DNA of 64,000 bases, taken from NCBI GenBank assembly GCA_945892765.1, contig CAMDDQ010000002.1, positions 3,427-67,426 of the forward strand, written 5' to 3'. Positions 790-46,260 of the stretch are shown one piece after another. This DNA is from Asaia bogorensis (lineage in GTDB: Bacteria > Pseudomonadota > Alphaproteobacteria > CACIAM-22H2). The position numbers and the translations under genes were made by a program. A model generated the notes under the pieces. The model had not been told where the DNA came from. It did not search any database and saw only the letters and a list, made by a program, of their open reading frames with translations. Within the stretch, counting starts at the first letter, position 1. The number at the start of each line of letters is the position of its first letter.

Positions 790-880
790 GAATTTTGACC
801 GTAGCTCACGATGACGGCGATTACAGGGCAGGCCAACTCAACCCGAGTCCGACACTACCACACCGAGCCGGCGGCTCGCA

Positions 881-1909: not shown

Positions 1910-1915
1910 CGCCGG

Positions 1916-3283
1916 TCAGCGTTTTGCGCGGCCGATGGCGGCGGCGAAGGCAGCGGTCAACCACAATCCGCCCTGCCACCAGGCCTGCCACAGCCCGAAA
2001 CTTATTGATGCCAAGACCAGGGCAGTCGTGATCTGCGCCAGCCAGGCCGCCTTGACGTCGCGATCGGACAGCCTGCGAACCGCGGCGGCAGCGGCGAGAA
2101 TCAGCGCTGATCCCAGTGCGGCTCCCACGACGCCAAGCTCCAACCAGAGCTGCAGGGGGGCATTGTGGGGGTGCAGGGGCATCAAGTCGATTTCCTCGCC
2201 TTGAAACCACTGGCGCAGGCTTTGGTAGCGGGGATCGCTTTCGGCAACTTCCCGATCGAGTCGGAGTTTGGCGCCGGTCTCGCCAATATGGCGCGAGGCG
2301 TTCAATCCCCAACCGGAAATCGGCCTCTCCGCGATCTCATGAGCGGAGAACTCCCAAATCCGCACGCGGTGATAGACCGAGGCAAGGACCGAGTGGCTCA
2401 TCTGGATTTGGGTGAGCGGCGGGAGAACATAGGTCGCCAGCGCGGGCGCGAGGACGATTCCGGCGGTCAAGGTCGCGGCGACAAAAGCGGTCGTCGGCGC
2501 GGGCCAGGGCCGGGCAACAACAAAGACACCGGCCCCGGCGAAAAGGGCAACCAACGCCGCCATGCTTTCGGTTTGCGCCACCAGAGCGAAAGCTCCCGCA
2601 GCAACCGTGGCGCCGAGCCATGGAGAGCGCTTCCACAGGACCAGGCCTGCCGGCCACAGACCCAGCGCCACGATTGTGGCCGGGCGATTGAGGACGGTCG
2701 GAAAACTCACGCCCGCGCTGCCCGTCAGGGACCCAAAGGCGTGGCTCAGGAAGCCGGATGTCGCCCATTCACCGAAAAGCAGGGCAAGGCCGGCAAGCAA
2801 ACCGATGACCGCACCCCGTTCAACCGCGCGCCGCTCATCCTCATGAAGGCTCATGGCTAGCCCCAGGGCGACGAGACCACTGAGAAACTCAACCCCAAGT
2901 TCGATGCTTAACGATAGGCTCGAACCGGCGCGCGGCGACCACGCGGCGCTCACCGCGCCCCAGACAACAACGCCGAATACGATCAATGCCGGTGTCGCGG
3001 GGACGCGGGGCAAATAGCGGTGGCGATGCCAATGCACACCGAGACCCAGCAATGCCGTCGCCGGGAGCAGGACACTTAGTCCCTTGGGCGCCAGAACCGC
3101 GAGGGGGAGCAAGAGTGCGGCAGCCAAGCCCAAAGCATGCCCGCCGTGCAAACGCGCAGCGCCGCGCCGGGTCACGAACGGCCCGACAACGGACTTGGAG
3201 GGGTGAGATGACGCCGCTTCCGCCAAAGGTGGCTCCTTATTTCGGGCGCAGACAACACTCGCCGCCCGAATCCTCGACATCAT
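1916..3283 (-). CDS. O-antigen ligase/polymerase family (Wzy_C / WaaL-like) integral membrane protein.
   Basis: About 10 predicted TM helices. Contains 'RVRIWEFSAHEIAERPISGWGLNASR' and 'HPHNAPLQLWLELGVVGA' (H..N...E motif of the O-antigen ligase family). The ORF-track start at 3361 runs through the upstream terminator hairpin, so the start was trimmed to the ATG at 3283. Confidence 0.55.
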   Translation of the reverse strand: MMSRIRAASVVCARNKEPPLAEAASSHPSKSVVGPFVTRRGAARLHGGHALGLAAALLLPLAVLAPKGLSVLLPATALLGLGVHWHRHRYLPRVPATPALIVFGVVVWGAVSAAWSPRAGSSLSLSIELGVEFLSGLVALGLAMSLHEDERRAVERGAVIGLLAGLALLFGEWATSGFLSHAFGSLTGSAGVSFPTVLNRPATIVALGLWPAGLVLWKRSPWLGATVAAGAFALVAQTESMAALVALFAGAGVFVVARPWPAPTTAFVAATLTAGIVLAPALATYVLPPLTQIQMSHSVLASVYHRVRIWEFSAHEIAERPISGWGLNASRHIGETGAKLRLDREVAESDPRYQSLRQWFQGEEIDLMPLHPHNAPLQLWLELGVVGAALGSALILAAAAAVRRLSDRDVKAAWLAQITTALVLASISFGLWQAWWQGGLWLTAAFAAAIGRAKR

Positions 3284-3310
3284 CCCCGTGGATAACCTCC
3301 CCGTCACGCC

Positions 3311-3350
3311 AAAAAAGGAGCCCTCCGTATCAAATGATACGGAGGGCTCC
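3311..3350 (-). terminator. Rho-independent terminator on the minus strand: a 15-bp perfect stem with an AAAT loop, followed by T6.
   Basis: The plus strand reads aaaaaa GGAGCCCTCCGTATC aaat GATACGGAGGGCTCC. On the minus strand this is a hairpin followed by TTTTTT, immediately downstream of the stop of the 3379-4248 gene. Confidence 0.7.
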
Positions 3351-3378
3351 CTTGTCGGCAATCCAACCTATGACGGGG

Positions 3379-4248
3379 TTACATCCAGCCTCGCTCGACT
3401 TTCAGCCGCAATCCCTCGGCGAACGGACGCGGGTGGACGCCAAGGCGCGTCTGCATGTCGGAAATGTCGAACCGTTTATCCTCGCCGGCGCGGGCGAATT
3501 CCGCCGCATCGAAGGGAATCAGGATCCCACATCGCGCCGCGAGGCGGGCAAGCGCAGCCAGCCATCCCAGCGGCACCGCGAGAACACGCGCCTTTCTACC
3601 CATGGCGCCGGCGCAGGCGCGGACCATTTCGGCATAGGTGATCGGTTGTGGACCCGCGATTATGATGGGCGGGCCGAATGCCTGCTTTTGGCTCGTCGCC
3701 GCGACCAGGGCCGCGACCACGTCGTCGACGAAGACGGGTTGCAGGACGTTTCTACCCCCATCCGGCAGCGGCAGGATCAAGGGCAGAAAGCGCGGCCAGC
3801 CCCGTGCCAAGCGCAGGATGCGGTTGACGTTGCGCTCGTCCGGAGCGCCATAGATCATCGTCGGGTGCAACATCACACCCGGCCGTCCGGAGGCGAGGAA
3901 CGCGGCCTCGCCCTTACGCACGGCCTCCGCGGCGGGGTCCGGTAGACGCGTGAACTTGCGCGTGCTGCCGGTGAGTACGATGCGCGGGCATTCTTGCGGA
4001 ATAGCGGTCAGCAGGGTCTCGGTGAAGCGGGCATGAGCCAAACTGACGACACAGTCCACGGCGTCGAGTTTTCCTGCCAAGGTCCGTGGGTCTTCGAGGT
4101 CGGCCGGGATTCGCGAGGCGCGCGGGTCGAGCCGGTTCAGCTTTTCGGTGTTCCGCCCAAGGGCATGAACCTCATGGCCATCGGCGCAGAGCCTTTCAAT
4201 CAGATAGCGGCCGGTCTTACCCGTGGCGCCGAAGACCGCGATCCTCAT
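3379..4248 (-). CDS. NAD(P)-binding SDR / NmrA-like family oxidoreductase (nucleoside-diphosphate-sugar epimerase/reductase type).
   Basis: N-terminal 'MRIAVFGATGKTGRYLIERL' GxxGxxG Rossmann motif. About 290 aa. Confidence 0.6.
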   Translation of the reverse strand: MRIAVFGATGKTGRYLIERLCADGHEVHALGRNTEKLNRLDPRASRIPADLEDPRTLAGKLDAVDCVVSLAHARFTETLLTAIPQECPRIVLTGSTRKFTRLPDPAAEAVRKGEAAFLASGRPGVMLHPTMIYGAPDERNVNRILRLARGWPRFLPLILPLPDGGRNVLQPVFVDDVVAALVAATSQKQAFGPPIIIAGPQPITYAEMVRACAGAMGRKARVLAVPLGWLAALARLAARCGILIPFDAAEFARAGEDKRFDISDMQTRLGVHPRPFAEGLRLKVERGWM

Positions 4249-8382: not shown

Positions 8383-9533
8383 GGGGCTTCCTTCGCGCCA
8401 CAAAGGCGATGAAACAGGTCCGCATAACGGGCGGCGATACGGTCGGCGGAGAAGCGGTGCGAAGACTCGATCCCCGCCGCCCCCAGGCGCTTGGCCAAGG
8501 CAGGATCGTCGAACAGCCTTTTCATGCCGTCGGTCAGTCCCCCGATGTTCGCCGGTACCAGCAATCCGTCCTGTTCATGGCGGACGATGTCGGTGGGACC
8601 GTACGGGCAATCCGCCGCGATCACGGGGGTGCCAGAGGCCATGGCCTCGACGATGACATGACCGAAACCCTCCCAACGCGACGACAGGACGAACATGGCG
8701 GCGTGGGTCAGCCACGGAGCGATGTCCTCGGCGCTGGTCCGTATCCCGACGCGGCCTTCAATGCCGAGTTCGCCGGCAAGGTGTTGAAGGGCGTCGCGGT
8801 CGGGGCCGTCGCCGATAATGACCAGCCGAGCATTGTCCGGCGCCGCGGCCGCGAAAGCACGTAGAAGTAGGTCGAAACCCTTCTGCGCAACCAACCGGCC
8901 AAGCCCGACCACTACTGGTGCGTTATCTGTCCATGGCCGAATGGCGGCACGGGCGTTTGCTGCGATGTGTTCGACCTCGACCGGATTGTGAATGGTAACG
9001 ACCCGCGTCGGTTCGAGACCATAGGATTCAGTCAATTCGCGGCCGACGCCGCGTGAAAGCGCCACCACGGCATCGGCGCGGCGATAGGCCCAGGCGATCG
9101 CCGCGCGGCTTGCCCAAGACAAATCGGGACGATGGCGATGGCTATTGGTCTCGCGCAACACGACGGCCGGCCGGTCTGAAAGCCCGAGTGTCGCCAACGT
9201 GGCGACGACATTGGCGTGCGCGATGGTCGCGAAAACAAGGTTTGGGCGAGTCGCGGTGATCAAGCGCCTGAGGGGTAGGGGCGCGCCACGCAACCGGCCC
9301 GCGGCCAAGTCGACGAAGTTGATATCTTTCGCAAGCCACTCGCGCCCCGGTCCATTGGCCCGCGCCGCGGCCAGCATCGGCAAGACACCGGTTCGCGGCA
9401 AATTGTTGACCAAGTTGACAACGGTCCGTTGCGCGCCGCCGAGATCGAGGTCGGGCAGAAAAAATAGTACCCGAAGCGGCTCCTTCCCGCTTCGGGCCGC
9501 TGCGGTCAATGGGATTTCCGCAGCAACCACCAA
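8379..9533 (-). CDS. Glycosyltransferase family 1 (GT4).
   Basis: 'RVLFFLPDLDLGGAQR' N-terminus. C-terminal 'GFGHVIVEAMASGTPVIAAD'. Confidence 0.8.
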   Translation of the reverse strand: MVVAAEIPLTAAARSGKEPLRVLFFLPDLDLGGAQRTVVNLVNNLPRTGVLPMLAAARANGPGREWLAKDINFVDLAAGRLRGAPLPLRRLITATRPNLVFATIAHANVVATLATLGLSDRPAVVLRETNSHRHRPDLSWASRAAIAWAYRRADAVVALSRGVGRELTESYGLEPTRVVTIHNPVEVEHIAANARAAIRPWTDNAPVVVGLGRLVAQKGFDLLLRAFAAAAPDNARLVIIGDGPDRDALQHLAGELGIEGRVGIRTSAEDIAPWLTHAAMFVLSSRWEGFGHVIVEAMASGTPVIAADCPYGPTDIVRHEQDGLLVPANIGGLTDGMKRLFDDPALAKRLGAAGIESSHRFSADRIAARYADLFHRLCGAKEAP

Positions 9534-10138
9534 TTGACGTCGTCCAGCCCGGTTGTCCGCTTCCAGAAAAATCCATCGGCGACGTATTCAAGGTCGGGAA
9601 AGCCGTCGAGCCAAAGTCCGCCATAGTCGCGTTTGAATAGCAGGTCGCCATGCCCGCGATAGGTAATGGTCTGCGTCACCGGGGAGAAATATTCCATGCA
9701 GAGGATCCAGCGCCGGCTGACGCGATGAATCTCCCGCATGGCCGCGGCGAGCGCCTCGTCCGGTACATGGATCAACACCGTCGAGGTGAAAACGAGGTCA
9801 AACGAGGTATCCGCCAACGGCAGGGCCGCCGCCGTCGCGTCATGAACCCGCTCAGCCGGCAAAACGGATTCCGCAATCAAGATCTCGCGAGCTTGGCGGT
9901 TTGGCTCGACGGCGTGGAGCGCGGCCCCGGTTAGGCCGGTGAGCGCGCGCAGGTTGAGCCCGATATTGGCGCCGACCTCGAGAATCGACGCAGCCGGGGC
10001 ACCGGCGAGGTGAGGCAGGATCGAAGCAAAAGCCGCGATGCGCTGTCTTACACGTTCCGCGGTCGCTTGGTTGCGCTCGATATACGCGTTGCCAAAATCG
10101 CCGCGCCAGATGCCAAGTTGTTTTTCGCCGAGTGTCAT
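9506..10138 (-). CDS. Class I SAM-dependent methyltransferase, of the family associated with nonulosonic-acid (Pse-type) clusters.
   Basis: 'ILEVGANIGLNLRAL' SAM-binding motif. About 210 aa from the ATG at 10138, which overlaps the upstream stop (ATGA). Confidence 0.55.
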   Translation of the reverse strand: MTLGEKQLGIWRGDFGNAYIERNQATAERVRQRIAAFASILPHLAGAPAASILEVGANIGLNLRALTGLTGAALHAVEPNRQAREILIAESVLPAERVHDATAAALPLADTSFDLVFTSTVLIHVPDEALAAAMREIHRVSRRWILCMEYFSPVTQTITYRGHGDLLFKRDYGGLWLDGFPDLEYVADGFFWKRTTGLDDVNWWLLRKSH

Positions 10139-10890
10139 GGTGAGTCCTGCGGAAGTCCGCGATAAGGGTTTTGCGCCGTGGCGCGGTTGATGGCGAGCAG
10201 CTCCGGCCTGGCCGCGAACAATGCTTCGATGTCGGCGAAGCCAAAGCCCGGGCGCGTCGCATAGAGAGCGTCGAAGACGCGCCTCGCCAGTTCCAGATCC
10301 TCGGCGGTGTCGACCACAAGCCGCCAGTCCCGCCGCGTGGGGCGGCGATCGAGGAAGACACAGGGATAGCGATCCGGGCGGCGCCACAGGAAGGGTGTTA
10401 CGTGTTCGCGTTCATAGGAATCCACGGCTTCCCGATCCGCCTCCGCCAGGGCGTCCGCGCGGACGACTTCGATATCGAAGCCGAGGGGAAAACCGCTTGC
10501 GAACGCGGTTCGCGCATAGGGCAGGCCCGTGGCCTGCCGCATTGCGATAACCGCGGCGCAAACATCGGGGTCGATCATCGGGCAGTCCGACGTCAGCCGA
10601 ACGACGACATCCGCGCGGCACACCGTCGCGGCCATCGCCGTTCGGCGCAATACGTCGTCCTCCGGGCCACGCACCAACGTCACATCCCTCAACCCACGGA
10701 CCAGTTCGGCAATCGGGTCATGCGCCGGGCCTTCGGGAATGGCGACGCAGATGCGATCGAGCCCGCCGATGCGGCGCACGCGCTCGATCATGCGGGTCAG
10801 AAGCGGGGCGCCGGCCAGGGGCATGAGAACTTTGCCCGGCAAACGCGTGGACGTCATCCGCGCCTGGATGACGGCAACAACGTTGTTCAT
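10135..10890 (-). CDS. CMP-sugar cytidylyltransferase (SpsF/PseF-like, CTP_transf_3).
   Basis: N-terminal 'VAVIQARMTSTRLPGKVL' signature of acylneuraminate / spore-coat cytidylyltransferases. Confidence 0.7.
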   Translation of the reverse strand: MNNVVAVIQARMTSTRLPGKVLMPLAGAPLLTRMIERVRRIGGLDRICVAIPEGPAHDPIAELVRGLRDVTLVRGPEDDVLRRTAMAATVCRADVVVRLTSDCPMIDPDVCAAVIAMRQATGLPYARTAFASGFPLGFDIEVVRADALAEADREAVDSYEREHVTPFLWRRPDRYPCVFLDRRPTRRDWRLVVDTAEDLELARRVFDALYATRPGFGFADIEALFAARPELLAINRATAQNPYRGLPQDSP

Positions 10891-11543
10891 GCCGGCATTC
10901 CGCCGAAATCATCGGCAATGGCGCCGCCCAGTGCCTTGACGATCCGCCAGTTTGCCCGCAGGGCGGAGCCGAATCGGGGTTGTCCATCGCGCGGCCGGAT
11001 CGGTACAGATACGTTTGCCCAACGGTGGCCCGAGCGGATCGCAGCGAGCGCCATGGCGGTATTGATCGATCGCCTCGCCGCCGCCGCGCCATGGGTGCAA
11101 TAGACCGATGCCGAAAATGCCTTGAGGCCGCACAAGATGTCGGGAACGCCGAATTGGGCGCGCGCATAAAGATCGAACAGCCATTCGGAGGGTCGGGCGG
11201 GGTGCGGCCGCGCTCCTAGCACCAGGTCCGCTTGCCCGGCCGCGATTGGCGCCAGCATGCGCGCGATCACGGCGGGATCATGTTGGCCATCGGCGTCGAA
11301 AGACAAGGCGGCATCGAGCTTCAAAGACGCCGCTCGGGCGAAGCCACTGGCGAGCGCGCCGTCATAGCCGCGATTGGCGGCGTGCCGGACGACAATGGCG
11401 CCCGCCGTCTCGGCAAGCGCCGAAGTGGCGTCGCTGGAGCCGTCATCAACGACGATCACCTCGCCATAGGGGCGGACGCTACGCACGACCTCGGCGATGG
11501 TCTTCTCCTCATTCAGCGCCGGGATGACTATCCCGGCTTTCAT
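10887..11543 (-). CDS. Glycosyltransferase family 2.
   Basis: 'KAGIVIPALNEEKTIAEVV...VIVVDDGSSD' GT2 motifs. ATGA overlap with the downstream neighbour. Confidence 0.7.
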   Translation of the reverse strand: MKAGIVIPALNEEKTIAEVVRSVRPYGEVIVVDDGSSDATSALAETAGAIVVRHAANRGYDGALASGFARAASLKLDAALSFDADGQHDPAVIARMLAPIAAGQADLVLGARPHPARPSEWLFDLYARAQFGVPDILCGLKAFSASVYCTHGAAAARRSINTAMALAAIRSGHRWANVSVPIRPRDGQPRFGSALRANWRIVKALGGAIADDFGGMPA

Positions 11544-12610
11544 TCGACGTCGGCCAGCCGCACGCAATCGCCGGCGTCGATGGCGCGCCGGGCGACGTGA
11601 CCGATCAGTTCAGCCTTTCGATGCGGGGGCAACCCGTCCACCGGGCAAGGACGTAGCACGACAAGATCAGTCGCCTCGATCTTGCGACCACGCGGGATCG
11701 CCCGCGCCGCCCGGATGGCGCGGCGTTGCAGGACCACGGTTTCGACTTCGTTGTCTTCGACTTTCTTGATCCCATCGCCGAGTGCGGCCTCCAGTTCGCG
11801 CGTGCGATCCACCATCTCGCGCCAGTTGCGGGGATCCATCGAAAATTTGTGATCGGGCCCGGCGCGTTCGCAATCGTCGGTGAAGTGTTTTTCGATGGCT
11901 CTTGCCCCGAGCGCCACGGCGCCGAGCACCGTTGCATGACCGGGCGTATGATCGGAAAGACCGAGGATGACGTCCGGAAATTCTGCCGCGAAGGCAGTGA
12001 GTGCCTTCAGGTTGACGTGCCGGAAATTCTCAAGCGACGCGGTGTAGTTGGTGTTGCACTGCATCAGCACGATGTCGCTGCAATGTTTACGGGCGGCAGC
12101 CATCGCGGCGCGGACCTCGGCCATGGTCGAAGCGCCGGTGGCGATGATGAGGGGCTTGCCATCCTTCGCCATGCGTTCGATCGATTCATGCCAGGTCACA
12201 TCGCCCGAGCCTAGTTTCCAGGCGCAGACATGGGGCGCGAGTCGGTCGATCAGGTCGAGGTCGTAGGGCGCGGTGAAATAATCGATTCCGGCCGCGTTGC
12301 AGGTAGCCTTCAACGTCTCGGTCCACCCCACCGGCAAGGACGCATCGGCATAAACATCGAAGACGCTCTTTGCCCAATTGGCCTGGTGCGATTTCTGTCC
12401 GCCCAGCGCCTTGAAGCCATAGTCGGAAACGATGGTCTCCGCCCTGAAATTCTGGAACTTCGCGGCGTGGGCGCCGGCTTCCGCGCAAAGCCGTATCAGC
12501 CGCTTTGCGCGCTCGAGATCGCCATCGTGATTGGCGGCGACGTCGGCGATGAAATAGGTGGGATTGCGGCCACCCACGCGGTGGCGGCCTATGGTGAATT
12601 CCCGGCTCAT
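11540..12610 (-). CDS. NeuB-family nonulosonic acid (sialic/pseudaminic/legionaminic-like) synthase, paralog 1.
   Basis: 'YFIADVAANHDGDLERAKRLIRLCAEAGAHAAKFQ' TIM-barrel NeuB motif. C-terminal SAF/AFP-like domain. Confidence 0.85.
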   Translation of the reverse strand: MSREFTIGRHRVGGRNPTYFIADVAANHDGDLERAKRLIRLCAEAGAHAAKFQNFRAETIVSDYGFKALGGQKSHQANWAKSVFDVYADASLPVGWTETLKATCNAAGIDYFTAPYDLDLIDRLAPHVCAWKLGSGDVTWHESIERMAKDGKPLIIATGASTMAEVRAAMAAARKHCSDIVLMQCNTNYTASLENFRHVNLKALTAFAAEFPDVILGLSDHTPGHATVLGAVALGARAIEKHFTDDCERAGPDHKFSMDPRNWREMVDRTRELEAALGDGIKKVEDNEVETVVLQRRAIRAARAIPRGRKIEATDLVVLRPCPVDGLPPHRKAELIGHVARRAIDAGDCVRLADVE

Positions 12611-13446
12611 AGCCTGTCGATCTCTTCCTGAAGTGTGGGGAGGCGCCGCCCGAGAGCCGCCTCCAGACGGCTCACATCCATGCGCAGGTCGCGCGCCCGC
12701 CGGGCGCGGCCCGGAACGCCGCGTACGTAGCCGGAGGTCGCGCTGTCGGTCGCCAATCCGAGGCGCCGGGCGACGGCAAAGCCGAAATCCCGCTTCGACA
12801 TCCCGGCGCGGCTGCCGAAATTAAAAATGCCCGAGAGGTTCTTGTCCAAAGCCTCCGCGATCAACGCCGCCAGTGTATCCATTTGCAACGGCGAATAGAG
12901 GGAGTCCAAAAACAGTGTGATCGGATGGCGTTCCGCCAGATTTGCCGTGATCCAGTCCGAAAGGCTGAGACGCCCGGGGGTGCGCGACCGGCCGAAGAAA
13001 TTCGTGCGAATAATCAATGCGCCCGGATGCGCCATTGCCTCGCGTTCACCGTCAAGCTTGCTGCGGCCATAGGTGTTGACGGGGCCGGTGTTGTCCTCGG
13101 CATGCGGTCCGTCCGTGTCCGAATAGACCTGATCCGTCGAGATCGCGACGAGTCTGGTATCCGGGGCAAGAGCCGACACCAGATTGCGCGTCGCGTCGCG
13201 GTTGAGGGCGGCGGCGCGCGCCGGGTTCCCTTCGCATTCATCGACCAGGCTGAGCGCGGCGGAATGAATGACAATGCCGGGGTCGACCGACTCCACCATC
13301 CGACGTGTCGCCTGGGCATCGGTCAGGTCGCATGGGATATCCCCGCCGCGTCCGCCAGTGCCCACGACCTTGCCCCGTTTTGCCATCGTGTCGATCAGAT
13401 AGGGGCCGAGCAGGCCGGTGACACCCGTGACCAAGGTCGGCCGCAT
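12607..13446 (-). CDS. dTDP-4-dehydrorhamnose reductase-like (RmlD family) NDP-sugar 4-keto reductase.
   Basis: 'MRPTLVTGVTGLLG' N-terminus. 'YGRSKLDGE' YxxxK catalytic motif. About 280 aa. Confidence 0.75.
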   Translation of the reverse strand: MRPTLVTGVTGLLGPYLIDTMAKRGKVVGTGGRGGDIPCDLTDAQATRRMVESVDPGIVIHSAALSLVDECEGNPARAAALNRDATRNLVSALAPDTRLVAISTDQVYSDTDGPHAEDNTGPVNTYGRSKLDGEREAMAHPGALIIRTNFFGRSRTPGRLSLSDWITANLAERHPITLFLDSLYSPLQMDTLAALIAEALDKNLSGIFNFGSRAGMSKRDFGFAVARRLGLATDSATSGYVRGVPGRARRARDLRMDVSRLEAALGRRLPTLQEEIDRL

Positions 13447-13448
13447 GG

Positions 13449-14495
13449 TTAGGCAAGTAGTCCATTTTCAACGAGAACGCGGCGGAGCGATGCGGCGTCG
13501 AGCCACTCGGGATTGGTGTCGCTGGCGTACCGAAAGCCCTCGGCAACGCGCTTGGCGCCGCGATCGGCCAGTGACTCCGACCGCCAGAACTTGAGTGAAG
13601 GTTCGATAACAAAGCGGTCATCGAGTTCGACGGTCGTGCGGGCGTCGTCTTCGGTGACCATGACTTCGTGCAGCTTCTCGCCCGGACGAATGCCGACCGT
13701 TCGTTGAACGCGGCCAGGAAGCATCGCTTCGGCCAGGTCGGTGATGCGGACGCTGGGGATTTTGGGCACGAAGATTTCTCCGGCCTGCATTGCGGCAAGG
13801 GCGGACAGAACGAAATCAACCCCCTGGTCGAGCGTGATCCAAAAGCGCGTCATGCGGGGGTCGGTGATCGGCACGTCTCCCGCGCCCGCGGCCGCGAGCG
13901 TCTTGAACAGCGGTACGACGCTACCCCGAGACCCCAATACATTGCCATATCGAACGACGCAAAAATGCGCGCCGCCGCGGCCGCTCAGATGGTTGGCGGC
14001 GACGAAAATCTTGTCGGAGGCAAGTTTGCTCGCCCCGTACAGATTGATGGGGTTGACCGCCTTGTCGGTGGAAAGCGCCACGACCCGCTTCACGCCGGTG
14101 CGGAGCGCCGCCTTCACCACGTTCTCCGCACCCAAGACGTTGGTGCGGATGCATTCAAAGGGATTGTATTCGGCCGTCGGCACCTGTTTCAGCGCGGCGG
14201 CGTGGATGACATAGTCGACCCCGCGCATGGCCATCTCCAAGCGATCGGAATCGCGGACATCGCCAATAAAGTAGCGCATCGGGTTGCCCGCGCCGATCGT
14301 GGGATCGCCCTGCATTTCGTACTGTTTCATCTCGTCGCGGGAAAACACGATGAGGCGCTCGGGCCGCCAATGTCTCAATACCGCGCGTACGAAATGCCTG
14401 CCGAACGAGCCGCTCCCGCCGGTGATCAGGACGGTGGCGCCGTTTAAGTCGATGCGCGGCTGATAACGGCCGCTCCGGTCGGTATCAGGCTTCAT
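13449..14495 (-). CDS. UDP-GlcNAc 4,6-dehydratase, PseB/FlaA1/CapD-like (polysacc_synt_2).
   Basis: 'VLITGGSGSFGRHFV'. 'LYGASKLASDK' YxxxK motif. About 350 aa. The start was taken at the internal ATG (14495). Confidence 0.8.
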   Translation of the reverse strand: MKPDTDRSGRYQPRIDLNGATVLITGGSGSFGRHFVRAVLRHWRPERLIVFSRDEMKQYEMQGDPTIGAGNPMRYFIGDVRDSDRLEMAMRGVDYVIHAAALKQVPTAEYNPFECIRTNVLGAENVVKAALRTGVKRVVALSTDKAVNPINLYGASKLASDKIFVAANHLSGRGGAHFCVVRYGNVLGSRGSVVPLFKTLAAAGAGDVPITDPRMTRFWITLDQGVDFVLSALAAMQAGEIFVPKIPSVRITDLAEAMLPGRVQRTVGIRPGEKLHEVMVTEDDARTTVELDDRFVIEPSLKFWRSESLADRGAKRVAEGFRYASDTNPEWLDAASLRRVLVENGLLA

Positions 14496-16133
14496 CGCGG
14501 ATTTTCTCCAAACGGAAAGGGCCGAGGTAGAGCACGTCAAGGCCACTGCAGAAATAGGTGTGCAACGCTTCTAGCGGGGCGTTGACCGTCGGCTGTTCAT
14601 TGATGTTGAGGCTGGTGTTGAGCACAACCGGGACGCCACCCTTGGCCGCGAATGTCTCGATCAGGCGATGGAACAGCGGATTGTGTTCGGCGCTAACACT
14701 TTGCAGGCGCGCGGTGTTGTCGACATGGGTGACTGCCGGCAAAATGTCGGCGGTCCCGGGCCGTGCCGGAAAGGTCACGACCATGAACGGCGCATCAAAG
14801 CTGTTCTCAAAATAGTCGGCCTGCGCGGCCGGCAGAACCGACGGGCAAAAGGGCCTGAATTCTTCACGGTATTTGATGGTGGCGTTGATGCGGTCTTTCA
14901 TCGCCTTACTGCGTGGGTCGGCGAGAATGGATCGGTTGCCAAGGGCGCGTGGACCGAATTCCATGCGTCCTTGAAACCAGCCCACGGTCCGTTGCGCGAG
15001 CAAGTCGGTGGCCGCGGCTTCGGTCGGGTCGCGGCACTCGGCAAAACGCGCGCCGACCTGAACGAGCGTCCGGCGGATTTCGTCCGGTGAATATTCCGGT
15101 CCCCAATAGGCATGGGCGAGCGGCGCGATGGAATGCCCGTGTTCGACGCATTTCAGCATGGCCGCGCCCAAAGCGACGCCGGCATCATGCGGGACCGGCG
15201 GGACATAGAGCCGGCGGATTCCGGCTTCCCGCCAAATCTCCATGTTCATCTTGCAGTTCAGCGCGACGCCTCCAGCAAGGCACAGATCGGTGCAGCCGGT
15301 GCGTTGAACCAGCGTGCGGGCGAGATGAACGCCGATTTCCTCCAATCGCTTTTGACCACTTGCGGCGATATCGCGGAAGCGGTCGTCGAGTTTCTGACCG
15401 GGCAGACGGCGCGGGCCAAGAACCTCTTCGAGCAATTCCGTGAATATGCGTTCTTGTCGCGTCGAGAAATCGGTCGTGTATATCGGCGCATCGCGCAGCC
15501 GCTTGTCATAGCCGCGCTCGAGCACGAAGCCGAAGCCATCGGGGCGGAGGATACGGTCGAAGGCCTCCAGGAATCGCGGCGTGCCGTAGGAGGCAAGACC
15601 CATGACCTTGTATTCGTCATGCGTCATGGAGAACCCAAGGTACTGCGTCAGCATCCCGTAGAACAGGCCGAGGCTGTTGTGACGTTCGAAACGGACAACC
15701 TCCGACATCGTCTTTCCCCGGCCATGGATGGCGAGGCCCGAACTCGAATCGCCCGAGAAATCGACGCACAAGACGCCGGCCTCGTCGAAGCCGGAGCCGT
15801 AATAGGTGCTGGCAGCGTGGCAGAGGTGGTGGTCGTAGAGTTCTATTTTTGGGCTGTGGCCGAAATTGAAGGCGAAATAATCGGTCAGGCGCTGTGCATA
15901 GTGCGGATAGGATTTGAGCGGCGAACATACCCAATCGACATCGCGCATCGTGATGCCGGCCTTCTTGAGGCAGAATCGGATGGCGCCACGCGGTAGCTCC
16001 CCGCGCGCGTGTTTGGCGAGTGTGAACCGCTCCTCCTCGCTGGCGGCGATTAACTCGCCGTCTCGCAAGAGCACGGCGCCGCCGTCGTGGTGACCGTGTT
16101 TCAGGCCAGAACTGATGCCGATGACGTACATGG
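14485..16133 (-). CDS. Carbamoyltransferase (NodU/CmcH family).
   Basis: 'MYVIGISSGLKHGHHDGGAVLL...DHHLCHAASTYY' N-terminal Kae1/YgjD-like fold with a C-terminal carbamoyltransferase domain. Start at the internal ATG (16133), because the ORF-track start lies inside the upstream gene. Confidence 0.8.
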
Positions 16134-22618: not shown

Positions 22619-23728
22619 TTAACGCAACGCGTTGCGCAAATGCCATTCATTGTCTTGAATCGTCCAGATTTCAGGATTTCGATGAAGATCGACGATGTGC
22701 TCGAATTCGCTGCGGCTAAGGCCCAGGAAATCGAGCGTGGCATCGATATGTTCCCCGGGGAACTCGCCGTCATAACGTTGGGCAAGCTCGAGACCCTGGG
22801 CCCGGGTCAGGCGGCCGTTTTGGATTTGCCTGCTGGCGTCGCGCACGGCCCGGCCAAATCCGAATTTGATGAATTGAAGGTAGTAATAGAGGTCGTCGAT
22901 CTTGTCGTCGAGGCTGTCGAAACTCGTGAACGTGCCTTCGCTGCGGCCCCAGGGAACAGTCTTGAAGTCTATCTTTTCGGCGATGAGTTCGTAATTGGAC
23001 ACCACGTCCCATCGATGGAAGTAGGCAAAATAGAGCGCCTTCACGCCGACGGCGGCGACGGCGTCGCGGTCGGGATAGTGATAGGGGTTGAGATCGCCGG
23101 CCCCAATCTTGTCATCGACCCAGTTGCGCGGATCGTCGCCGATCTGATGTTCGATGACTTCGGTGAAGTCTCGAATTTTCTTGGACTCCTCGTTACGGAC
23201 CTTGCCGCCATATTCGCTTTCACCATGTTCGGCGTAAAAGACCAGCGCGATGCGATAACGCACGGCGACCTGCAAGGGAATGGTATTGACCCCCGCGTCC
23301 CAGGCCACCTTGGGATTGCCGCGCTCGACAAAAAAGCGATGGGCGAGGTGCCGCGCTACTTGCTGATTCGGCCGGACGAGAAGGTGGTCGAATCCCGCCT
23401 TCAGCATCTGCTCGCGATTGTGTTGCGCGATTTCGGAGGGGATCATCGGCGAAAAGGTGACGAGCAGCGGATTAAGGCCGTAGTCGAATTTTAGTCGCCA
23501 GGCGATCGCGCTTGAATCCTTGCCGCCGCTCCAGGGCACGACACAATCCCAACTACCATCGGTGGATTTATAGGCGGCGATGAGGTCCAGGAACTCCTGG
23601 CCTCGGGCCGCCCAATCCACATGGTTTTTTTGTTCGGCATTGAGGCAACCGTTGCAGATTCCCTCGGGATTGAAGCCGATACGTGGCCTGCTCGACGGCA
23701 TCAGACATTTTTTGCAGAACTGGAACAT
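22619..23728 (-). CDS. N-acetyl sugar amidotransferase (WbuX/PseA/LPS biosynthesis PP-loop ATPase family).
   Basis: 'CKKCLMPSSRP...CNGC' Zn-ribbon. 'VVPWSGGKDSS' PP-loop. Confidence 0.8.
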   Translation of the reverse strand: MFQFCKKCLMPSSRPRIGFNPEGICNGCLNAEQKNHVDWAARGQEFLDLIAAYKSTDGSWDCVVPWSGGKDSSAIAWRLKFDYGLNPLLVTFSPMIPSEIAQHNREQMLKAGFDHLLVRPNQQVARHLAHRFFVERGNPKVAWDAGVNTIPLQVAVRYRIALVFYAEHGESEYGGKVRNEESKKIRDFTEVIEHQIGDDPRNWVDDKIGAGDLNPYHYPDRDAVAAVGVKALYFAYFHRWDVVSNYELIAEKIDFKTVPWGRSEGTFTSFDSLDDKIDDLYYYLQFIKFGFGRAVRDASRQIQNGRLTRAQGLELAQRYDGEFPGEHIDATLDFLGLSRSEFEHIVDLHRNPEIWTIQDNEWHLRNALR

Positions 23729-23751
23729 TGCCTACTCGATGGTGAACGACA

Positions 23752-24510
23752 TCATGGACGGACTTCGATTCCGGCTTTGGTGAGAAAGGATTTCGCGCTT
23801 TTGATCGCGGTCTCGGTGAAATGGTAGATGTTCTGGGTGCAGACGGCCGAGGCACGGGCCGCCCGGAATCCCTCGACGAAGTGTTGCCATTGGCCGGCGC
23901 CGCCGAGGATCAGGACCGGTACGTCGACCGCATCGGCGACTGCCCGGCAAAGTTCGAGATCGTAGCCCTCGAGCGACCCATCGCGGTCCACGGCCTGGAT
24001 AAGAATCTCCCCGGCCCCACGCCGCACCGCCTCCCGCGCCCATTTCTCCGGTGTTAGGCCGGTGGGCGAGGACGCGAAATCCGCGAATACTTCATAGCCG
24101 CCCTCGGCGTTTTTTCTGGCGTCGATGCAGACGACAACACATTGAGCGCCATAGGCCCGCGCGATTTCGGTAATGAAGTCCGGCCGCCGGATCGCCGCCG
24201 AATTGACCACGACTTTGTCCGCGCCGATGCCCATCATCTCGCGCACGTCATCGAGATGGCGAAGCCCGCCGCCGGCGGCGAGCGGCACGAAACACTTGCC
24301 GGCGAAACGGCGCACGACCTCAAGAAAATTGGCCCGCTGCCCACCGCCTGGCCGGGTGACGTCGAGCACCACGATTTCGTCCACGGACCACGCATCCACG
24401 AAATTGAGCGTATAGCGATAATCCGGCACGAAGTCCTTGGTCCGGAACAAGACCCCGTCGTTGAAGGTGAGGACGGTCACCAGGCGTTTGCGTAACACGA
24501 CCCTCCTCAA
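23752..24510 (-). CDS. Imidazole-glycerol-phosphate synthase cyclase subunit homolog (HisF-like, WbuZ type).
   Basis: 'VPLAAGGGLR', 'VVVNSAAI' and 'VPVLILGGAG' HisF barrel motifs. Encoded inside a glycan locus next to HisH-like and WbuX-like genes. Confidence 0.8.
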   Translation of the reverse strand: MRRVVLRKRLVTVLTFNDGVLFRTKDFVPDYRYTLNFVDAWSVDEIVVLDVTRPGGGQRANFLEVVRRFAGKCFVPLAAGGGLRHLDDVREMMGIGADKVVVNSAAIRRPDFITEIARAYGAQCVVVCIDARKNAEGGYEVFADFASSPTGLTPEKWAREAVRRGAGEILIQAVDRDGSLEGYDLELCRAVADAVDVPVLILGGAGQWQHFVEGFRAARASAVCTQNIYHFTETAIKSAKSFLTKAGIEVRP

Positions 24511-25127
24511 CCCTCTTCGAGGAAATTCCGTAACACGGTGAGGCCGTGTCGCTGGCTCTTTTCGGGATGAAATTGGGTCCCGTAGATCCGCCCCTTCTCG
24601 ACCGTGGCCGTAACCGGCCCGCCATAATCGGTCTCCCCGGTGATGACGTCGTCGTCGCCGCGGATGTGAAAACTATGGACGTAGTAGAAGAGCGCGTCGT
24701 CGGGGACGTTCTTGAACAACACGCTATCGCGCTTTCGGCGCAACTCGTTCCATCCGACATGCGGGACGCGCAGGTTCGTATCCGTTGGTTCGATGCGAAC
24801 AACCTCGGCGTCCAGCCAACCCAGGCCGCGGTGATCGCCGAATTCCGCGCTGCCGCGAGCGAGCAATTGAGCGCCGAGACAAATGCCCAGGATCGGCTTG
24901 CCCGCCCCCAGAACCAGTCGGTTCAGCGCATCGGCGAGGCCGCGGCGGCGCAGCTCGGCCATCCCATCGCCGAAGGCGCCAACCCCCGGCAGGATATATT
25001 TGTCTGCGGTTTCAAGCGCTGCGGGCTCGGCGGCAAGCCGGGGCGCGAAACCGAGCCGTTCGACCGCCCCGGCCACCGAGGTAAGGTTGCCCAGCCCGTA
25101 ATCGACGATGGCGATCGTCGCCGTCAA
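24507..25127 (-). CDS. Glutamine amidotransferase class I, HisH-like (WbuY type).
   Basis: 'IAIVDYGLGNLTSV' and 'GICLGAQLL' (catalytic Cys) with 'HSFH'. ATGA overlaps on both sides. Confidence 0.8.
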   Translation of the reverse strand: MTATIAIVDYGLGNLTSVAGAVERLGFAPRLAAEPAALETADKYILPGVGAFGDGMAELRRRGLADALNRLVLGAGKPILGICLGAQLLARGSAEFGDHRGLGWLDAEVVRIEPTDTNLRVPHVGWNELRRKRDSVLFKNVPDDALFYYVHSFHIRGDDDVITGETDYGGPVTATVEKGRIYGTQFHPEKSQRHGLTVLRNFLEEG

Positions 25128-26950: not shown

Positions 26951-26953
26951 GGA

Positions 26954-28917: not shown

Positions 28918-29738
28918 GGCGACTCCGCATAGGCGCGCAGCAGGCGGCCGGCGCGTTGCCTTAGTAGCCAGGGCATCGGACCGAAGTAACGGCCTTCGCC
29001 CGTCTGCGGCTCCGCTTTGGCGGTGCCGGCGACAAAACATGCGAGCAGATCAATGGTCATGCGCGCGCACAAAATGGCGGTATGGCAGCGCAGATTGACG
29101 ACATTCATGCCCTTGATGCGGCCGATGGGCTCGGCGGCGTAAATCGCGCCGGTATCGATTCCGGCGTCGATGCCGTGCAGAGTGACATTCATATCCTGGG
29201 GTCGCCCTTCAAGCACCGCCCATAGATTGGTGTCGAGGCCGCGATAGGCCGGCAATTTTCCGCCATGGGCGTTGACCGTGCCGAGCCTTGGCGCATCGAA
29301 GATCCGCGCCTTGACCACGCCGGTGCCATAGACCAGTTGAAGGTCCGGCGACGCCTCGGCAAGCGCCGCCGCCGCGTCGTCATCGTTGATGGATCGTACC
29401 TTTTTGACCGAGAGAGATTGGGGCAGGCTGCTGTCGCCATCGGGGAAGAAAAGTGAATTTTCGAACTCGGCTTGGGCGCGGGCGAAGGATAGGGGCTGGA
29501 AATAGGGGTTGAGCGCAAGGCCGCGCCATAGATTTGGGAAAGTCTGCCGCAAGTGTCGCTTCGCGTTGCGGCCCCACGGATAGGGCCTGGTCTCGAACAG
29601 CGCGAGAACAAGTTCGACACGTTCCGGCTTCTCCCGCCACAAGCGGCGAAGATAATAACGGTGGTGCGGTGTGTCGGTCGTAAGCACGGCAACCCGAATG
29701 ACGCCATCCCGCTTCGTGGAGCCGGCATCTTCGTTCAT
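28914..29738 (-). CDS. Formyltransferase (Fmt / ArnA-N-terminal-like sugar N-formyltransferase).
   Basis: 'NAHGGKLPAYRGLDTNLWAVLEG' resembles the formyl_trans_N H..LP.YRG motif. Start ATG at 29738 overlaps the upstream stop. Confidence 0.6.
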   Translation of the reverse strand: MNEDAGSTKRDGVIRVAVLTTDTPHHRYYLRRLWREKPERVELVLALFETRPYPWGRNAKRHLRQTFPNLWRGLALNPYFQPLSFARAQAEFENSLFFPDGDSSLPQSLSVKKVRSINDDDAAAALAEASPDLQLVYGTGVVKARIFDAPRLGTVNAHGGKLPAYRGLDTNLWAVLEGRPQDMNVTLHGIDAGIDTGAIYAAEPIGRIKGMNVVNLRCHTAILCARMTIDLLACFVAGTAKAEPQTGEGRYFGPMPWLLRQRAGRLLRAYAESP

Positions 29739-31663
29739 GTTCTCGTGGCGATCAGCGGGGCCGCGCCAGCCGTTTGCTTCGCGAAGGCCTCGGCATACCA
29801 ACCGCCCCGGCGAAGCAGGGCCTCATGGGCGCCGATGGCGACGAGTCTGCCGCCATCAATGACGATGATCTGATCGGCGTCGGCAACGGTCGACAGGCGG
29901 TGGGCGATCACAACGATGGTCGTTGCCGTGTCCCGCCGGATGCGGCGCAGCGCCTCGCGAAACTTCACCTCGGCGTCCGCGTCGAGTTGACTGGTTGGCT
30001 CGTCGAGGATCAGGACGGCAGACTGTCGCGCGAGGGCGCGGGCGAGGTCGAGACGCTGGCGTTGGCCCCCGGAAAGTCGATGCCCATCTTCGCCAAGTGC
30101 GGTGTCGTAGCCCTTCGGCAACTTCTCGATGAACTCCGCCGCCCCCGCCAGATTGGCCGCCGCGCGCACCTCGTCATCCGTGGCCTTCGGGTTGCCATAT
30201 CGAATGTGCTCGGCGACGAGGACGTCGAAAATCTGGGGGCTCTGCGACACATAGGCAATGCCGGCGCGCAGGGAATCGAGCGCGAATTCGGTGAGCGCCG
30301 CACCATCGATAGAAATCGAACCGCCTGTCGGATCGCGGAGGCGTGGCAAGAGGTCGATCAAGGTCGATTTGCCGCTGCCCGAAGGCCCGACCAAGGCCGT
30401 CATTTGACCGGCGGGGATGTCGAAGGAAATGTCGTGCAGCGCCGGTACTTCCGTTCCCAGGCCGTAATCGAATGTCACGCCGTTGAAGCGGATCGCCCGC
30501 CGCAGCCCGCTGAAGCGGCGCTCCCCGCCCTTGTCTTCGCGGGCCGCGTCGAGGGCTGCCAGCCTTTGTTCCACGGCGCGGAGACTCGCCGAGAATCCGA
30601 GGACGACATGGTGCATCTTGACCATTTCGGTTACGGCCGGAAGCAGACGCAGCAGGATCAACAGAAATAAACCGATCGTTTCGAGCGGCATCGCGGCAAC
30701 GGTCGTGGCCACGTACAGCATGACGAAGCTGAAGGCCACGACGACCGGCTCCATCAGGGTGTTGATGCTCGCCCCCAGCGATTGGAAACGTACGGCCCTT
30801 TTGGCCTGTCGCAGCGTCAACATTTCCATGCGCGCAATCTCGCCGGCTTGGGTGCCGGATAGACGAATGAGGCGCACGGCCTTCAATCGCTCGGCGAGGA
30901 ACGTGGCCACACTGCGACTCGACTCGCTGATCCTCTGACTGGCTTCGCGGCTTTGCCCGATCAGGCCGCGGAGCATTCCGACCGAGCCGCCGAACACAAC
31001 CAATGACGCGAGCGTCATCCAGGGCGACAGCAGGGTCAGCAATCCGGCGTAGAAGGCCATCAGGATAGTGCCGCCCGCGACGCGAACGACGCACATTACT
31101 GCGCCGACGGCGCGCGGGGCCTCGACGACCAGGTCATTCACGACCGCGCCGAGCCGAGCGTCTTCCTGCGCGGTGACGCGTGCGGTCAAATAGCGGCGAA
31201 ACCCAAGATTGCGCAGCGATTGGATGGACGACTCATTGACCCGCGCCTCATAGATCATGCGGGCGTAGACGAAGGCCTGGCGAAGAAGAATTCCGGCGAA
31301 ACTCGCGGCCAGCAGGGTGACCAGGCTGACCTGGAGGCCGAGGGCCTCGTGCGCCGAGATGATCCAGCGCCAAAACGTTCCTTGGGCGAGCGGGCCAATA
31401 GCCTCGCCGGCTTGCATGAATTGAAATACAGGCAGCAGCATCGAAACGCCGAGGCCCTCGAAGGCGACGGCGCCAACCTGCAACACCAGCAATATCCCGA
31501 CACGGCGGCGCGTGAAGCCGACCCGCGGCGCGGCGCGTATGGCGTCCTTGTACGCCAAATCCGTCACTCCGACCGCGGCCTTGCTCCGTCGAGCAAGAGG
31601 CTCCTGATCGGATCGCCGCCGAATCGATGACCGTCGAAACGGCCGGAGAAGGAGGGACGACAT
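29735..31663 (-). CDS. ABC transporter, fused permease-ATPase type I exporter (MsbA-like).
   Basis: Six TM helices followed by 'GPSGSGKSTL' Walker A, 'LSGGQRQRLDLARAL' signature and 'ILDEPTSQLD' Walker B. The N-terminal 100 nt overlap the upstream ORF, so the start is uncertain. Confidence 0.8.
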   Translation of the reverse strand: MSSLLLRPFRRSSIRRRSDQEPLARRSKAAVGVTDLAYKDAIRAAPRVGFTRRRVGILLVLQVGAVAFEGLGVSMLLPVFQFMQAGEAIGPLAQGTFWRWIISAHEALGLQVSLVTLLAASFAGILLRQAFVYARMIYEARVNESSIQSLRNLGFRRYLTARVTAQEDARLGAVVNDLVVEAPRAVGAVMCVVRVAGGTILMAFYAGLLTLLSPWMTLASLVVFGGSVGMLRGLIGQSREASQRISESSRSVATFLAERLKAVRLIRLSGTQAGEIARMEMLTLRQAKRAVRFQSLGASINTLMEPVVVAFSFVMLYVATTVAAMPLETIGLFLLILLRLLPAVTEMVKMHHVVLGFSASLRAVEQRLAALDAAREDKGGERRFSGLRRAIRFNGVTFDYGLGTEVPALHDISFDIPAGQMTALVGPSGSGKSTLIDLLPRLRDPTGGSISIDGAALTEFALDSLRAGIAYVSQSPQIFDVLVAEHIRYGNPKATDDEVRAAANLAGAAEFIEKLPKGYDTALGEDGHRLSGGQRQRLDLARALARQSAVLILDEPTSQLDADAEVKFREALRRIRRDTATTIVVIAHRLSTVADADQIIVIDGGRLVAIGAHEALLRRGGWYAEAFAKQTAGAAPLIATRT

Positions 31664-34420: not shown

Positions 34421-34421
34421 C

Positions 34422-37590: not shown

Positions 37591-37631
37591 GCCGATCCAA
37601 CTCTAGTTGAAGGGCCCAATTGCAACACTGG

Positions 37632-45755: not shown

Positions 45756-46259
45756 CTAGGCGCAGGCGGCCACCGCGTCGAGCGGAAGCCTCACGCGCAC
45801 CGGGCGGCCAAGGAGTTGCAGAAGGACGACAACACGCTGAGAATCGGACCCGTCGTCAAACAACCCGATCTGATCGCTCAATGCCCCGGTGACCACGCGT
45901 ATCCGATCGCCCTTCGCGAAAATTGTCCCCCGGCCAAGGACCACGAAGCCGCAATCATCCTCGCGCGCCCGGATCGCCTCGATCACCTCCGGCGGCACGG
46001 GAATTGGTCCGTCACCGCCCGATACCAGCCGGTGAACGCCGACGGTGGAGTCGATGGAACGCCACCGCTGCCGCTCCATGTCGATGCCAACGAACAGATA
46101 GCCCGGAAACAGGGGGGCGGCGACAATTTCCGCGCGACCCGCATGCCGGCGCTGTTTCTTGTGACGGGGCAGGTAGACGGCGAATTCCTGGCGGCGCAAA
46201 TGCATTTCGGCCTGGGCTTCGGCGCGCGGCTGCGTATGGGCGACGTACCAGCGCTGCAT
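45756..46259 (-). CDS. NusG-family transcription antiterminator paralog (RfaH/UpxY-like).
   Basis: 'RWYVAHTQPRAEAQAEMHL' NGN domain. C-terminal KOW-like 'FAKGDRIRVVTGALSDQIGLF'. It lies directly upstream of, and on the same strand as, the glycan operon. Confidence 0.7.
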   Translation of the reverse strand: MQRWYVAHTQPRAEAQAEMHLRRQEFAVYLPRHKKQRRHAGRAEIVAAPLFPGYLFVGIDMERQRWRSIDSTVGVHRLVSGGDGPIPVPPEVIEAIRAREDDCGFVVLGRGTIFAKGDRIRVVTGALSDQIGLFDDGSDSQRVVVLLQLLGRPVRVRLPLDAVAACA

Positions 46260-46260
46260 G

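Follow-up and report, generated by a model that had tools for sequence, protein, structure and literature searches.

A window of 64,000 nucleotides from Asaia bogorensis (contig CAMDDQ010000002.1, positions 3,427 to 67,426; the term window refers here to this whole stretch) carries on its minus strand a five-gene operon that joins a PseB-type dehydratase (PseB1), an RmlD-like reductase (Red) and a nonulosonic acid synthase of the NeuB family (NeuB1) to a small GT2 protein (GT2s) and a cytidylyltransferase (CMP1). Judging from the sequence, we consider this operon to be, on balance, a reductase branch of the pseudaminic acid (Pse) pathway, which would yield a CMP-5-acylamino-3,5,9-trideoxy-nonulosonic acid. 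The gene order is PseB1, Red, NeuB1, GT2s, CMP1; the first junction reads TAAccATG, the other three are ATGA stop/start overlaps, and the five genes are translationally coupled. An earlier note on this DNA had placed genes of the PseB, RmlD and NeuB types at these positions, and a Pfam scan of the 43 minus-strand open reading frames (ORFs) of the polysaccharide locus that includes the operon, complemented with NCBIfam for key ORFs, confirmed these assignments (Table 1).

PseB1 passes the PseB equivalog TIGR03589 (512.3 bits, the cutoff being 407.75) and fails the FnlA model (247 bits against 730). It gives 386 bits with Helicobacter pylori FlaA1 (2GN4), 220 with Pen (6BWC) and 224 with CapE, and is 66–69% identical to the PseB protein of Azospirillum. 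Its catalytic motif is STDK...YGASK, with STDKAVNPINLYGASK at residues 142–157, and it contains the [ST]DK...Yx3K pattern that serves as test for the PseB family (PMC8987622).

Red falls below the RmlD equivalog TIGR01214 (119.1 bits against 224.05) and retains the GxxGxxG motif (G8–G14), S103/T104 and Y126-x3-K130. An AlphaFold (AF2) model obtained from 31 homologs, with a pLDDT of 97, matches the RmlD structures 8CTR, 1VL0 and 1KBZ with TM scores of 0.88–0.91 at an identity of 29% or lower. Fold (TM 0.9) and Ser/Thr-Tyr-Lys residues are hence shared with RmlD, whereas the low identity, the score below the equivalog cutoff, the lack of RmlABC partners and the membership in a separate, PseB-linked clade set Red apart from it. 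RmlD catalyzes the 4-keto reduction of an L-configured 6-deoxy-4-hexulose, a substrate of the same class as the PseB product. That Red is a genuine dTDP-4-dehydrorhamnose reductase, acting in L-rhamnose synthesis, is extremely unlikely: the Pfam RmlD_sub_bind match, the fold and the annotation of its homologs as RmlD in databases speak for such an enzyme, but its score lies below the cutoff, no RmlA, RmlB or RmlC partner was found in the window (no PF00483, no PF00908, no RmlB equivalog) and its clade is separate from the ordinary RmlD homologs and always located beside PseB. On this point the reading of the earlier note, which placed the protein in another pathway, is supported.

Two other types of system combine a dehydratase with a second enzyme. 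CapE/FnlA with CapF/FnlB (L-PneNAc, L-FucNAc) and WbvB with WbvR (L-RhaNAc, L-QuiNAc), reportedly described by Kneidinger et al. in 2003 and Mulrooney et al. in 2005, likewise use a Polysacc_synt_2 dehydratase/5-epimerase on UDP-GlcNAc and then a 4-ketoreductase, which in WbvR is RmlD-like. Here, in contrast, the dehydratase is of the PseB type (YxxxK, failing the FnlA model), there is no 2-epimerase, and the reductase is coupled to NeuB and a CMP-transferase. Red is also a single domain of 279 amino acids (aa), unlike the two-domain CapF/WbjC/FnlB type of about 370 aa, and gives no match to the CapF/WbjC-type model NF047837 at E ≤ 1e-5. The second system is Pen/Pal of Bacillus thuringiensis, in which a PseB-like enzyme is followed by a second short-chain dehydrogenase/reductase (SDR) before the aminotransferase. 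As outlined in PMC5109656 and PMC8987622, it is a precedent for splitting the PseB reaction, and Pen has the same TDK...Yx3K motif as PseB; by analogy, PseB1 and Red could be a two-enzyme route to a 4-keto sugar whose keto group awaits amination. We consider this very unlikely and rejected the analogy on the scores: PseB1 is far closer to FlaA1 than to Pen, and the Red profile gives 61 bits with Pal (6BWL) against 120–190 with RmlDs, whose fold Red shares, Pal being a GalE/RmlB-like SDR of 328 aa and not RmlD-like.

The association of these genes recurs in many other genomes. In a genome scan with one genome per species, the best 80 loci were analysed by local tblastn and clustering; PseB, Red and a NeuB 53–70% identical to NeuB1 adjoin in 22 of them, among which are about a dozen Anaerolineae/Chloroflexota besides Betaproteobacteria, Oxalobacteraceae, Verrucomicrobia, Myxococcaceae, Pseudobdellovibrio and the cultured Psychrobacter sp. 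Arc29. PseB, a member of the Red clade and a member of the NeuB1 clade are direct neighbours in no fewer than 24 other genomes, which belong to several phyla and include Alphaproteobacteria as well as many Anaerolineae. Two alphaproteobacterial metagenome-assembled genomes (MAGs) and two further contigs show the order PseB, (methyltransferase), Red, NeuB, small GT2, CTP_transf_3. In a neighbour-joining tree, all the reductases linked to PseB fall into a single clade that excludes the other RmlD-like matches. A PseB ortholog is located within 7 kb of all 29 members of the Red clade and of one of the 44 other RmlD-like homologs (Fisher p = 1.6e-19), and a NeuB1-clade gene directly follows Red in 24 of these 29. 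The counts lack phylogenetic independence but come from several phyla. In metagenomes the Red family is tight, with proteins of about 280 aa and 45–68% identity, after which identity drops to the 30–35% typical of ordinary RmlD; clustering at 50% identity gave 603 representatives at E ≤ 1e-30. A plasmid search yielded no close relative of Red, the best match (34%) being an ordinary RmlD.

The association is also seen when the search starts from the synthase. Metagenomes contain a very large number of NeuB1-clade proteins: every one of the best 120 matches exceeds 650 bits, and most of those with a name are from Anaerolineae. Three of its members, selected for long contigs only, all lie in loci with the order PseB, RmlD-like, NeuB, GT4, CTP_transf_3, where no aminotransferase was found within 7 kb and Wzm/Wzt genes stand beside the module. 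Most loci with the PseB-Red-NeuB triad have no DegT gene within 7–10 kb, and most lack NeuC.

In the cultured Psychrobacter sp. Arc29 (locus L011, 6597–14309) the module, at about 83.6–88.1 kb of NZ_JASMRR010000001.1, has the order PseB, cytidylyltransferase, Red, NeuB, GT2s, and two Capsule_synth proteins (PF05159, KpsC/KpsS-like) flank the module; the window ORF 42086–43624 is a weak match to the same family. KpsC/KpsS-like proteins use CMP-linked ulosonic acid donors.

NeuB1 is below the cutoffs of both the NeuB_NnaB equivalog TIGR03569 (265.3 bits against 399.65) and the PseI equivalog TIGR03586 (227.8 bits against 340.25). It was aligned to Neisseria meningitidis NeuB (NmNeuB), whose numbering is used here, and to a solved PseI. 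The catalytic and metal-binding residues K53, Q55, K129, H215, H236, D247 and R314 are all kept in NeuB1 and its clade, which has a signature of its own: D25, G131-S132-G133, A154, T184 and the loop GFKxLGGQxSHQAxWKKSV. Instead of the PseI signature A-S-F-E with Ser184 (PMC7371886), NeuB1 carries G-S-G-D with Thr184. A Trp in the loop, a region assigned to recognition of the sugar C4–C6 (PMC7371886), is common to NeuB1 and PseI and missing from NmNeuB. The NeuB proteins adjacent to PseC in four loci (L012, L013, L034 and L084) do carry the canonical PseI signature. NeuB1 is 53–70% identical to Red-adjacent NeuBs of other genomes and 29–37% to the three other paralogs of the window. That four paralogs exist, as the earlier note implied, is borne out by Pfam and alignment.

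Apart from NeuB1, these paralogs are located at 26954–~27990, 33404–34477 and 36598–37590; the four are 29–43% mutually identical and all keep the catalytic residues, NeuB4 lacking the SAF domain. Four CTP_transf_3 domains accompany the four NeuBs in the locus, with no NeuC, PseG, LegG or aminotransferase for any of them.

No aminotransferase or acetyltransferase accompanies the operon. Pfam, applied to the 43 locus ORFs with permissive thresholds for the unannotated ones, revealed no PF01041 (DegT), PF00202 (Aminotran_3), Hexapep or GNAT family, and the unannotated ORFs had no NCBIfam matches. We also performed six-frame tblastn on the window and its contig extension, using as queries four DegT proteins (one of them an Azospirillum PseC from an annotated plasmid), two class-III aminotransferases, three GNATs and one Antibiotic_NAT. 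PseC apart, these queries came from related loci, and no match fell below E = 0.03. The absence from the window noticed earlier is thus confirmed. According to the earlier note, the missing genes could be located past coordinate 1. A protein identical to the WecA-like one of the window is encoded on a 68,617-bp metagenome contig, ERZ27280297:k141_1179186, that reaches 4.6 kb past window position 1. This extension comprises the remaining part of a 626-aa WbpM/PglF-like dehydratase, then purH and lastly a partial gene where the contig stops; no aminotransferase or N-acetyltransferase was found across the 68.6-kb contig.

The locus L012 provides a natural control. It contains one PseB, followed by PseC and a PseI with the canonical A-S-F/S184 signature, and then by Red and a NeuB1-clade protein, a gene set such as would be expected if two branches departed from the PseB product.

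On this basis the following route can be proposed. PseB1, by equivalog-level homology, would convert UDP-GlcNAc to UDP-2-acetamido-2,6-dideoxy-beta-L-arabino-hex-4-ulose. Red would then reduce the 4-keto group with NAD(P)H, in place of the amination carried out by PseC, to give UDP-6-deoxy-L-AltNAc or its 4-epimer. UDP would have to be removed before condensation, a step for which GT2s is a weak candidate. NeuB1 is predicted to condense the free 6-deoxy-hexosamine with phosphoenolpyruvate (PEP) to 5-acetamido-3,5,9-trideoxy-non-2-ulosonic acid, with a 7-hydroxyl and a 9-deoxy position, which CMP1, by family-level homology, would activate as a CMP-sugar. WbuX/HisH/HisF, encoded elsewhere in the locus, may convert the 5-N-acetyl to a 5-N-acetimidoyl group. 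The net product would be the same if the reduction came after the condensation; its stereochemistry cannot be read from sequence. The earlier note had predicted a 6-deoxy-hexosamine precursor and a mono-amino, 7-hydroxy 9-deoxy acid. The tie of the Red clade to PseB and a particular NeuB clade, seen across many genomes, is as this route would predict; the product itself is a prediction.

The canonical CMP-Pse pathway (PseB, PseC, PseH, PseG, PseI, PseF) has in common with the operon a true PseB and the succession from UDP-GlcNAc through a 6-deoxy-L-hexosamine and PEP condensation by a NeuB-family synthase to CMP activation; in Azospirillum, pseC occupies next to pseB the position that Red has here. 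The module differs from it in lacking PseC, PseH and PseG, in the RmlD-fold reductase after PseB, in a cytidylyltransferase with no PseF match, and in a synthase below the PseI cutoff with G133, T184 and D25 in place of F, S and E. At C7 the predicted product carries OH instead of NHAc.

An acid of the predicted class is already known. The O-chain of Fusobacterium nucleatum ATCC 25586 is [4-beta-Non5Am-4-alpha-L-6dAltNAc3PCho-3-beta-D-QuiNAc] (PMC13014188). Its 5-acetimidoylamino-3,5,9-trideoxy-non-2-ulosonic acid, for which 2-acetamido-2,6-dideoxy-L-altrose is the expected precursor, goes back to Vinogradov et al. 2017, as related in PMC7371886 and PMC13014188, and is given as the sole trideoxy nonulosonic acid reported, the counterpart of the diamino fusaminic acid (PMC7371886). 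The suggestion that the window encodes a possibly novel sugar must therefore be dropped. A full-text literature search for '9-trideoxy' gave no other natural source, and no gene assignment for a trideoxy fusaminic-type sugar was found in the literature searched. With F. nucleatum 25586 the module shares the predicted class (5-N-acyl, 7-OH, 9-deoxy, 5-acetimidoyl), there together with the predicted precursor and D-QuiNAc; that system is known as a chemical structure only. The capacities of the window could match the chain, with the WbpM-like, SDR and WecA-like proteins for D-QuiNAc or D-FucNAc, PseB and Red for L-6dAltNAc, and WbuX/HisH/HisF for the acetimidoyl group. No Fusobacterium appeared among the best 80 loci of the genome scan or the matches of two protein profile searches. 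The module is conserved and apparently undescribed, and it most likely makes a mono-amino 9-deoxy fusaminic-type acid; it would then be a pathway variant and not a new sugar class.

A number of observations weigh against a reductase branch that ends in such an acid. The absence of an aminotransferase covers only 68.6 kb of the genome, and in relatives a class-III aminotransferase and N-acyltransferases are frequently encoded downstream. NeuB1 has Gly at the position of the PseI Phe, a residue tied to the altro C2 configuration (PMC7371886). Red homologs are fused to PseC in L013 (1062–3206, an Uhrbacteria MAG, 714 aa) and in P0303/L098 (1890–3971, a high-GC organism, 693 aa; reductase domain 50% identical to Red of the window, PseC domain with 53% identity to that of Azospirillum), and L030, L031 and L034 show the order PseB-Red-PseC. 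Neither PseG, NeuC, LegG nor any other UDP-sugar hydrolase was found in the window (no Glyco_tran_28_C, no PF02350). Finally, GT2s is the one conserved candidate for releasing the sugar from UDP in proteobacterial loci, but its motifs and best relatives suggest a polyprenyl-phosphate sugar synthase no less strongly; a GT4-family protein replaces GT2s in Chloroflexi, and a few loci have neither.

The earlier note had the reductase standing in place of the aminotransferase. The gene content is as it described, but the Red::PseC fusions indicate a branch beside PseC and not a strict replacement: the Red and PseC domains plausibly bind the same PseB product, which makes Red a possible branch-point enzyme. 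Fusion proteins of this kind are uncommon, accounting for 1 of the 150 best representatives. Both lie directly after PseB, in two unrelated organisms. For the partial ORF that follows the fusion in L098, a PDB sequence search for likeness to PseG gave nothing.

The same fusions and PseB-Red-PseC loci, along with the 68.6 kb of genome seen, would also suit an ordinary 5,7-diamino pseudaminic acid pathway in which pseC, pseH and pseG lie elsewhere in the genome and Red is accessory to PseC. We regard this as unlikely, since NeuB1 shows neither the PseI signature nor a score above the PseI equivalog cutoff, the canonical PseI of L012 goes with PseC while NeuB1 goes with Red, most triad loci are free of DegT over the distance given above, and fusions are so scarce. 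With respect to the genes downstream, in close relatives the class-III aminotransferase is sometimes fused to the cytidylyltransferase and an adenylation/carrier pair follows, all of which are absent from the window; this gives a hint that aminotransferase and acyltransferase genes act there in late-stage tailoring.

Fusions of cytidylyltransferase to class-III aminotransferase and of NTP_transferase to an ABC exporter were observed at L012:13374-15395, L093:12596-14689 and L093:4954-7860, and Antibiotic_NAT, AMP-binding and PP-binding genes are located downstream of the core in L093 and L094. The window has none of these.

The best relatives of GT2s, in PDB as well as in NCBIfam, are DPMS, GpgS, ArnC and PpgS. 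The motifs FDADGQH and DxLCGxK are conserved, no transmembrane segment is predicted, and GT2s is present after NeuB1 in 10 loci. It is a candidate UDP-sugar hydrolase, polyprenyl-phosphate sugar synthase or ordinary transferase. CMP1 gives weak KdsB-type NCBIfam matches at E ≤ 1e-5 and no PseF match, and is kept in most triad loci. We also considered GT2s as the Rosetta-stone partner of the GT2 domain in the GT2::CTP_transf_3 fusion at 34422–35834; BLASTP gave E = 0.097, with no meaningful similarity, and this candidate was rejected.

These properties of GT2s bear on the main surviving rival explanation, according to which PseB1 and Red make UDP-6-deoxy-L-AltNAc (or UDP-6-deoxy-L-IdoNAc) as a glycosyl donor only, which GT2s loads onto undecaprenyl phosphate or the glycan, while NeuB1 and CMP1 act on another aldose to yield a different ulosonic acid; the genes would adjoin because the sugars adjoin in the polymer. 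The DADGQH and DxLCGxK motifs, the kinship with PpgS, DPMS and ArnC, the lack of a UDP-sugar hydrolase among the window ORFs and the existence of PseB-Red-PseC loci without NeuB1 are in its favour, and so is the F. nucleatum 25586 chain, where, in the structure as reproduced in the cited literature, L-6dAltNAc is itself a residue beside the nonulosonic acid. We nonetheless find it rather improbable. No pathway to an alternative NeuB substrate accompanies NeuB1 in a conserved manner, the window and most triad loci lack NeuC, and the adjacency of Red and NeuB1 in 24 of 29 clade members, seen also from the NeuB1 side, extends to loci without GT2s.

Nonulosonic acids stand at the tips of bacterial surface glycans and govern their recognition by Siglecs, antibodies and phages. 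Genome-based prediction of these sugars relies on three routes (Neu, Leg and Pse). The reductase branch, if true, would explain genetically how a mono-amino 9-deoxy fusaminic-type sugar arises, a question testable with five genes and the cultured Psychrobacter isolate; it would also correct a widespread misannotation as RmlD and N-acetylneuraminate synthase and provide enzymes with which 7-OH/9-deoxy sialic acid analogues could be made chemoenzymatically. A wider proposal, in which we place little confidence, is that PseB, Red and the NeuB1 clade could constitute a fourth, hitherto undescribed nonulosonic acid pathway beside Neu, Leg and Pse, making 7-hydroxy-9-deoxy acids of the fusaminic type in hundreds to thousands of environmental genomes, mainly Anaerolineae, where it would be misannotated as RmlD and N-acetylneuraminate synthase, with GT2s (GT4 in Chloroflexi) as a new UDP-sugar hydrolase replacing PseG.

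Table 1. Genes of the operon and other features of the locus (window positions)
Feature	Position	Strand	Description	Support
PseB1	13449..14495	-	PseB-type dehydratase; ORF extendable to 14546	PF02719 4.6e-102
Red	12607..13446	-	Predicted RmlD-fold NAD(P)H 4-ketoreductase, 279 aa, PseB-associated clade	PF04321 1.7e-38
NeuB1	11540..12610	-	Nonulosonic acid synthase, distinct clade, 356 aa	PF03102 1.7e-68 + SAF domain
GT2s	10887..11543	-	Small soluble GT-A protein, 218 aa, DPM1/ArnC/PpgS-like	PF00535 4.6e-23
CMP1	10135..10890	-	CTP_transf_3 cytidylyltransferase, 251 aa, presumed CMP-sugar synthetase	PF02348 1.2e-23
MT1	9506..10138	-	S-adenosylmethionine (SAM) methyltransferase, 210 aa, after CMP1, possible tailoring	PF08241
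Carbamoyltransferase	14485..16131	-	NodU/CmcH type, possible tailoring, link tentative	PF16861, PF02543
WbuX, HisF-like (WbuZ-like), HisH-like	22619..25127	-	Putative N-acetyl to N-acetimidoyl conversion	NCBIfam scores
Fused ABC exporter	29735..31663	-		Pfam ABC_tran; tblastn

The genes next to the operon include candidates for tailoring of the sugar. The stop of the carbamoyltransferase gene overlaps the PseB1 start by 11 bp, and methyltransferases are also found inside the module in L007, L093, L094 and L012. Methyl- and carbamoyltransferases may tailor the sugar; a free hydroxyl on the predicted product would be a possible site for the carbamoyltransferase. WbuX gives 315 bits with TIGR03573 (cutoff 203), the HisF-like protein 220 bits with the WbuZ model (against 300) and HisH 218 bits, and homologs of the three are located at 10 kb or less from the core in L007, L094, L093, L009 and L057. 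Because the window holds four NeuB paralogs, their link to the module is tentative. The N-modifying enzymes of the locus comprise, together with WbuX/HisH/HisF, three AsnB-like proteins, a polysaccharide deacetylase, a formyltransferase-like protein and the carbamoyltransferase. The fused ABC exporter is orthologous (40–46%) to an ABC gene located immediately ahead of PseB in relatives (tblastn: L005, L007, L093 and L094).

Region 22619–29801 encodes WbuX, the HisF-like and HisH-like proteins, an AsnB-like amidotransferase and NeuB2, and then the polysaccharide deacetylase (27967–29040) and the formyltransferase-like protein (28914–29801); these enzymes could together swap N-acetyl for acetimidoyl or formyl groups. 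A second module, at 33404–41953, contains a PseB-like dehydratase with MxxxK instead of YxxxK (40910–41953) and a full-length UDP-sulfoquinovose-synthase-like protein (39765–40913; 441 bits, cutoff 575), the rest being a GalE-like SDR, a radical SAM/SPASM enzyme, NeuB4, a cytidylyltransferase, the GT2::CTP_transf_3 fusion mentioned above and NeuB3. Its product could conceivably be an unusual ulosonic acid, for instance a sulfonated one.

The window has a GC content of 63%. Its polysaccharide locus extends from position 1 to about 46890, nearly all on the minus strand, with housekeeping genes to its right; the 43 minus-strand ORFs cover 1–46890 with gaps of 132 bp or shorter. At the locus head (45756–46890) are genes for an HTH_24 protein and a NusG paralog, and HTH homologs 31–36% identical to the former head PseB-Red-NeuB loci in seven Chloroflexi genomes (L018, L022-L025, L027 and L032), about 7 kb upstream of the reductase. 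At the opposite end, region 1–4248, together with L089:11169-13049, encodes, besides the 626-aa WbpM/PglF-like membrane dehydratase that lies partly beyond the window start, a WecA/WbpL-like initiating transferase (881–1909), a Wzy_C protein and a 289-aa SDR. These proteins are the usual kit for starting a chain with D-QuiNAc or D-FucNAc. Plus-strand AT skew at 1–4000 is high (0.25 and 0.19), as compared with about 0.1 or less in most other parts of the window.

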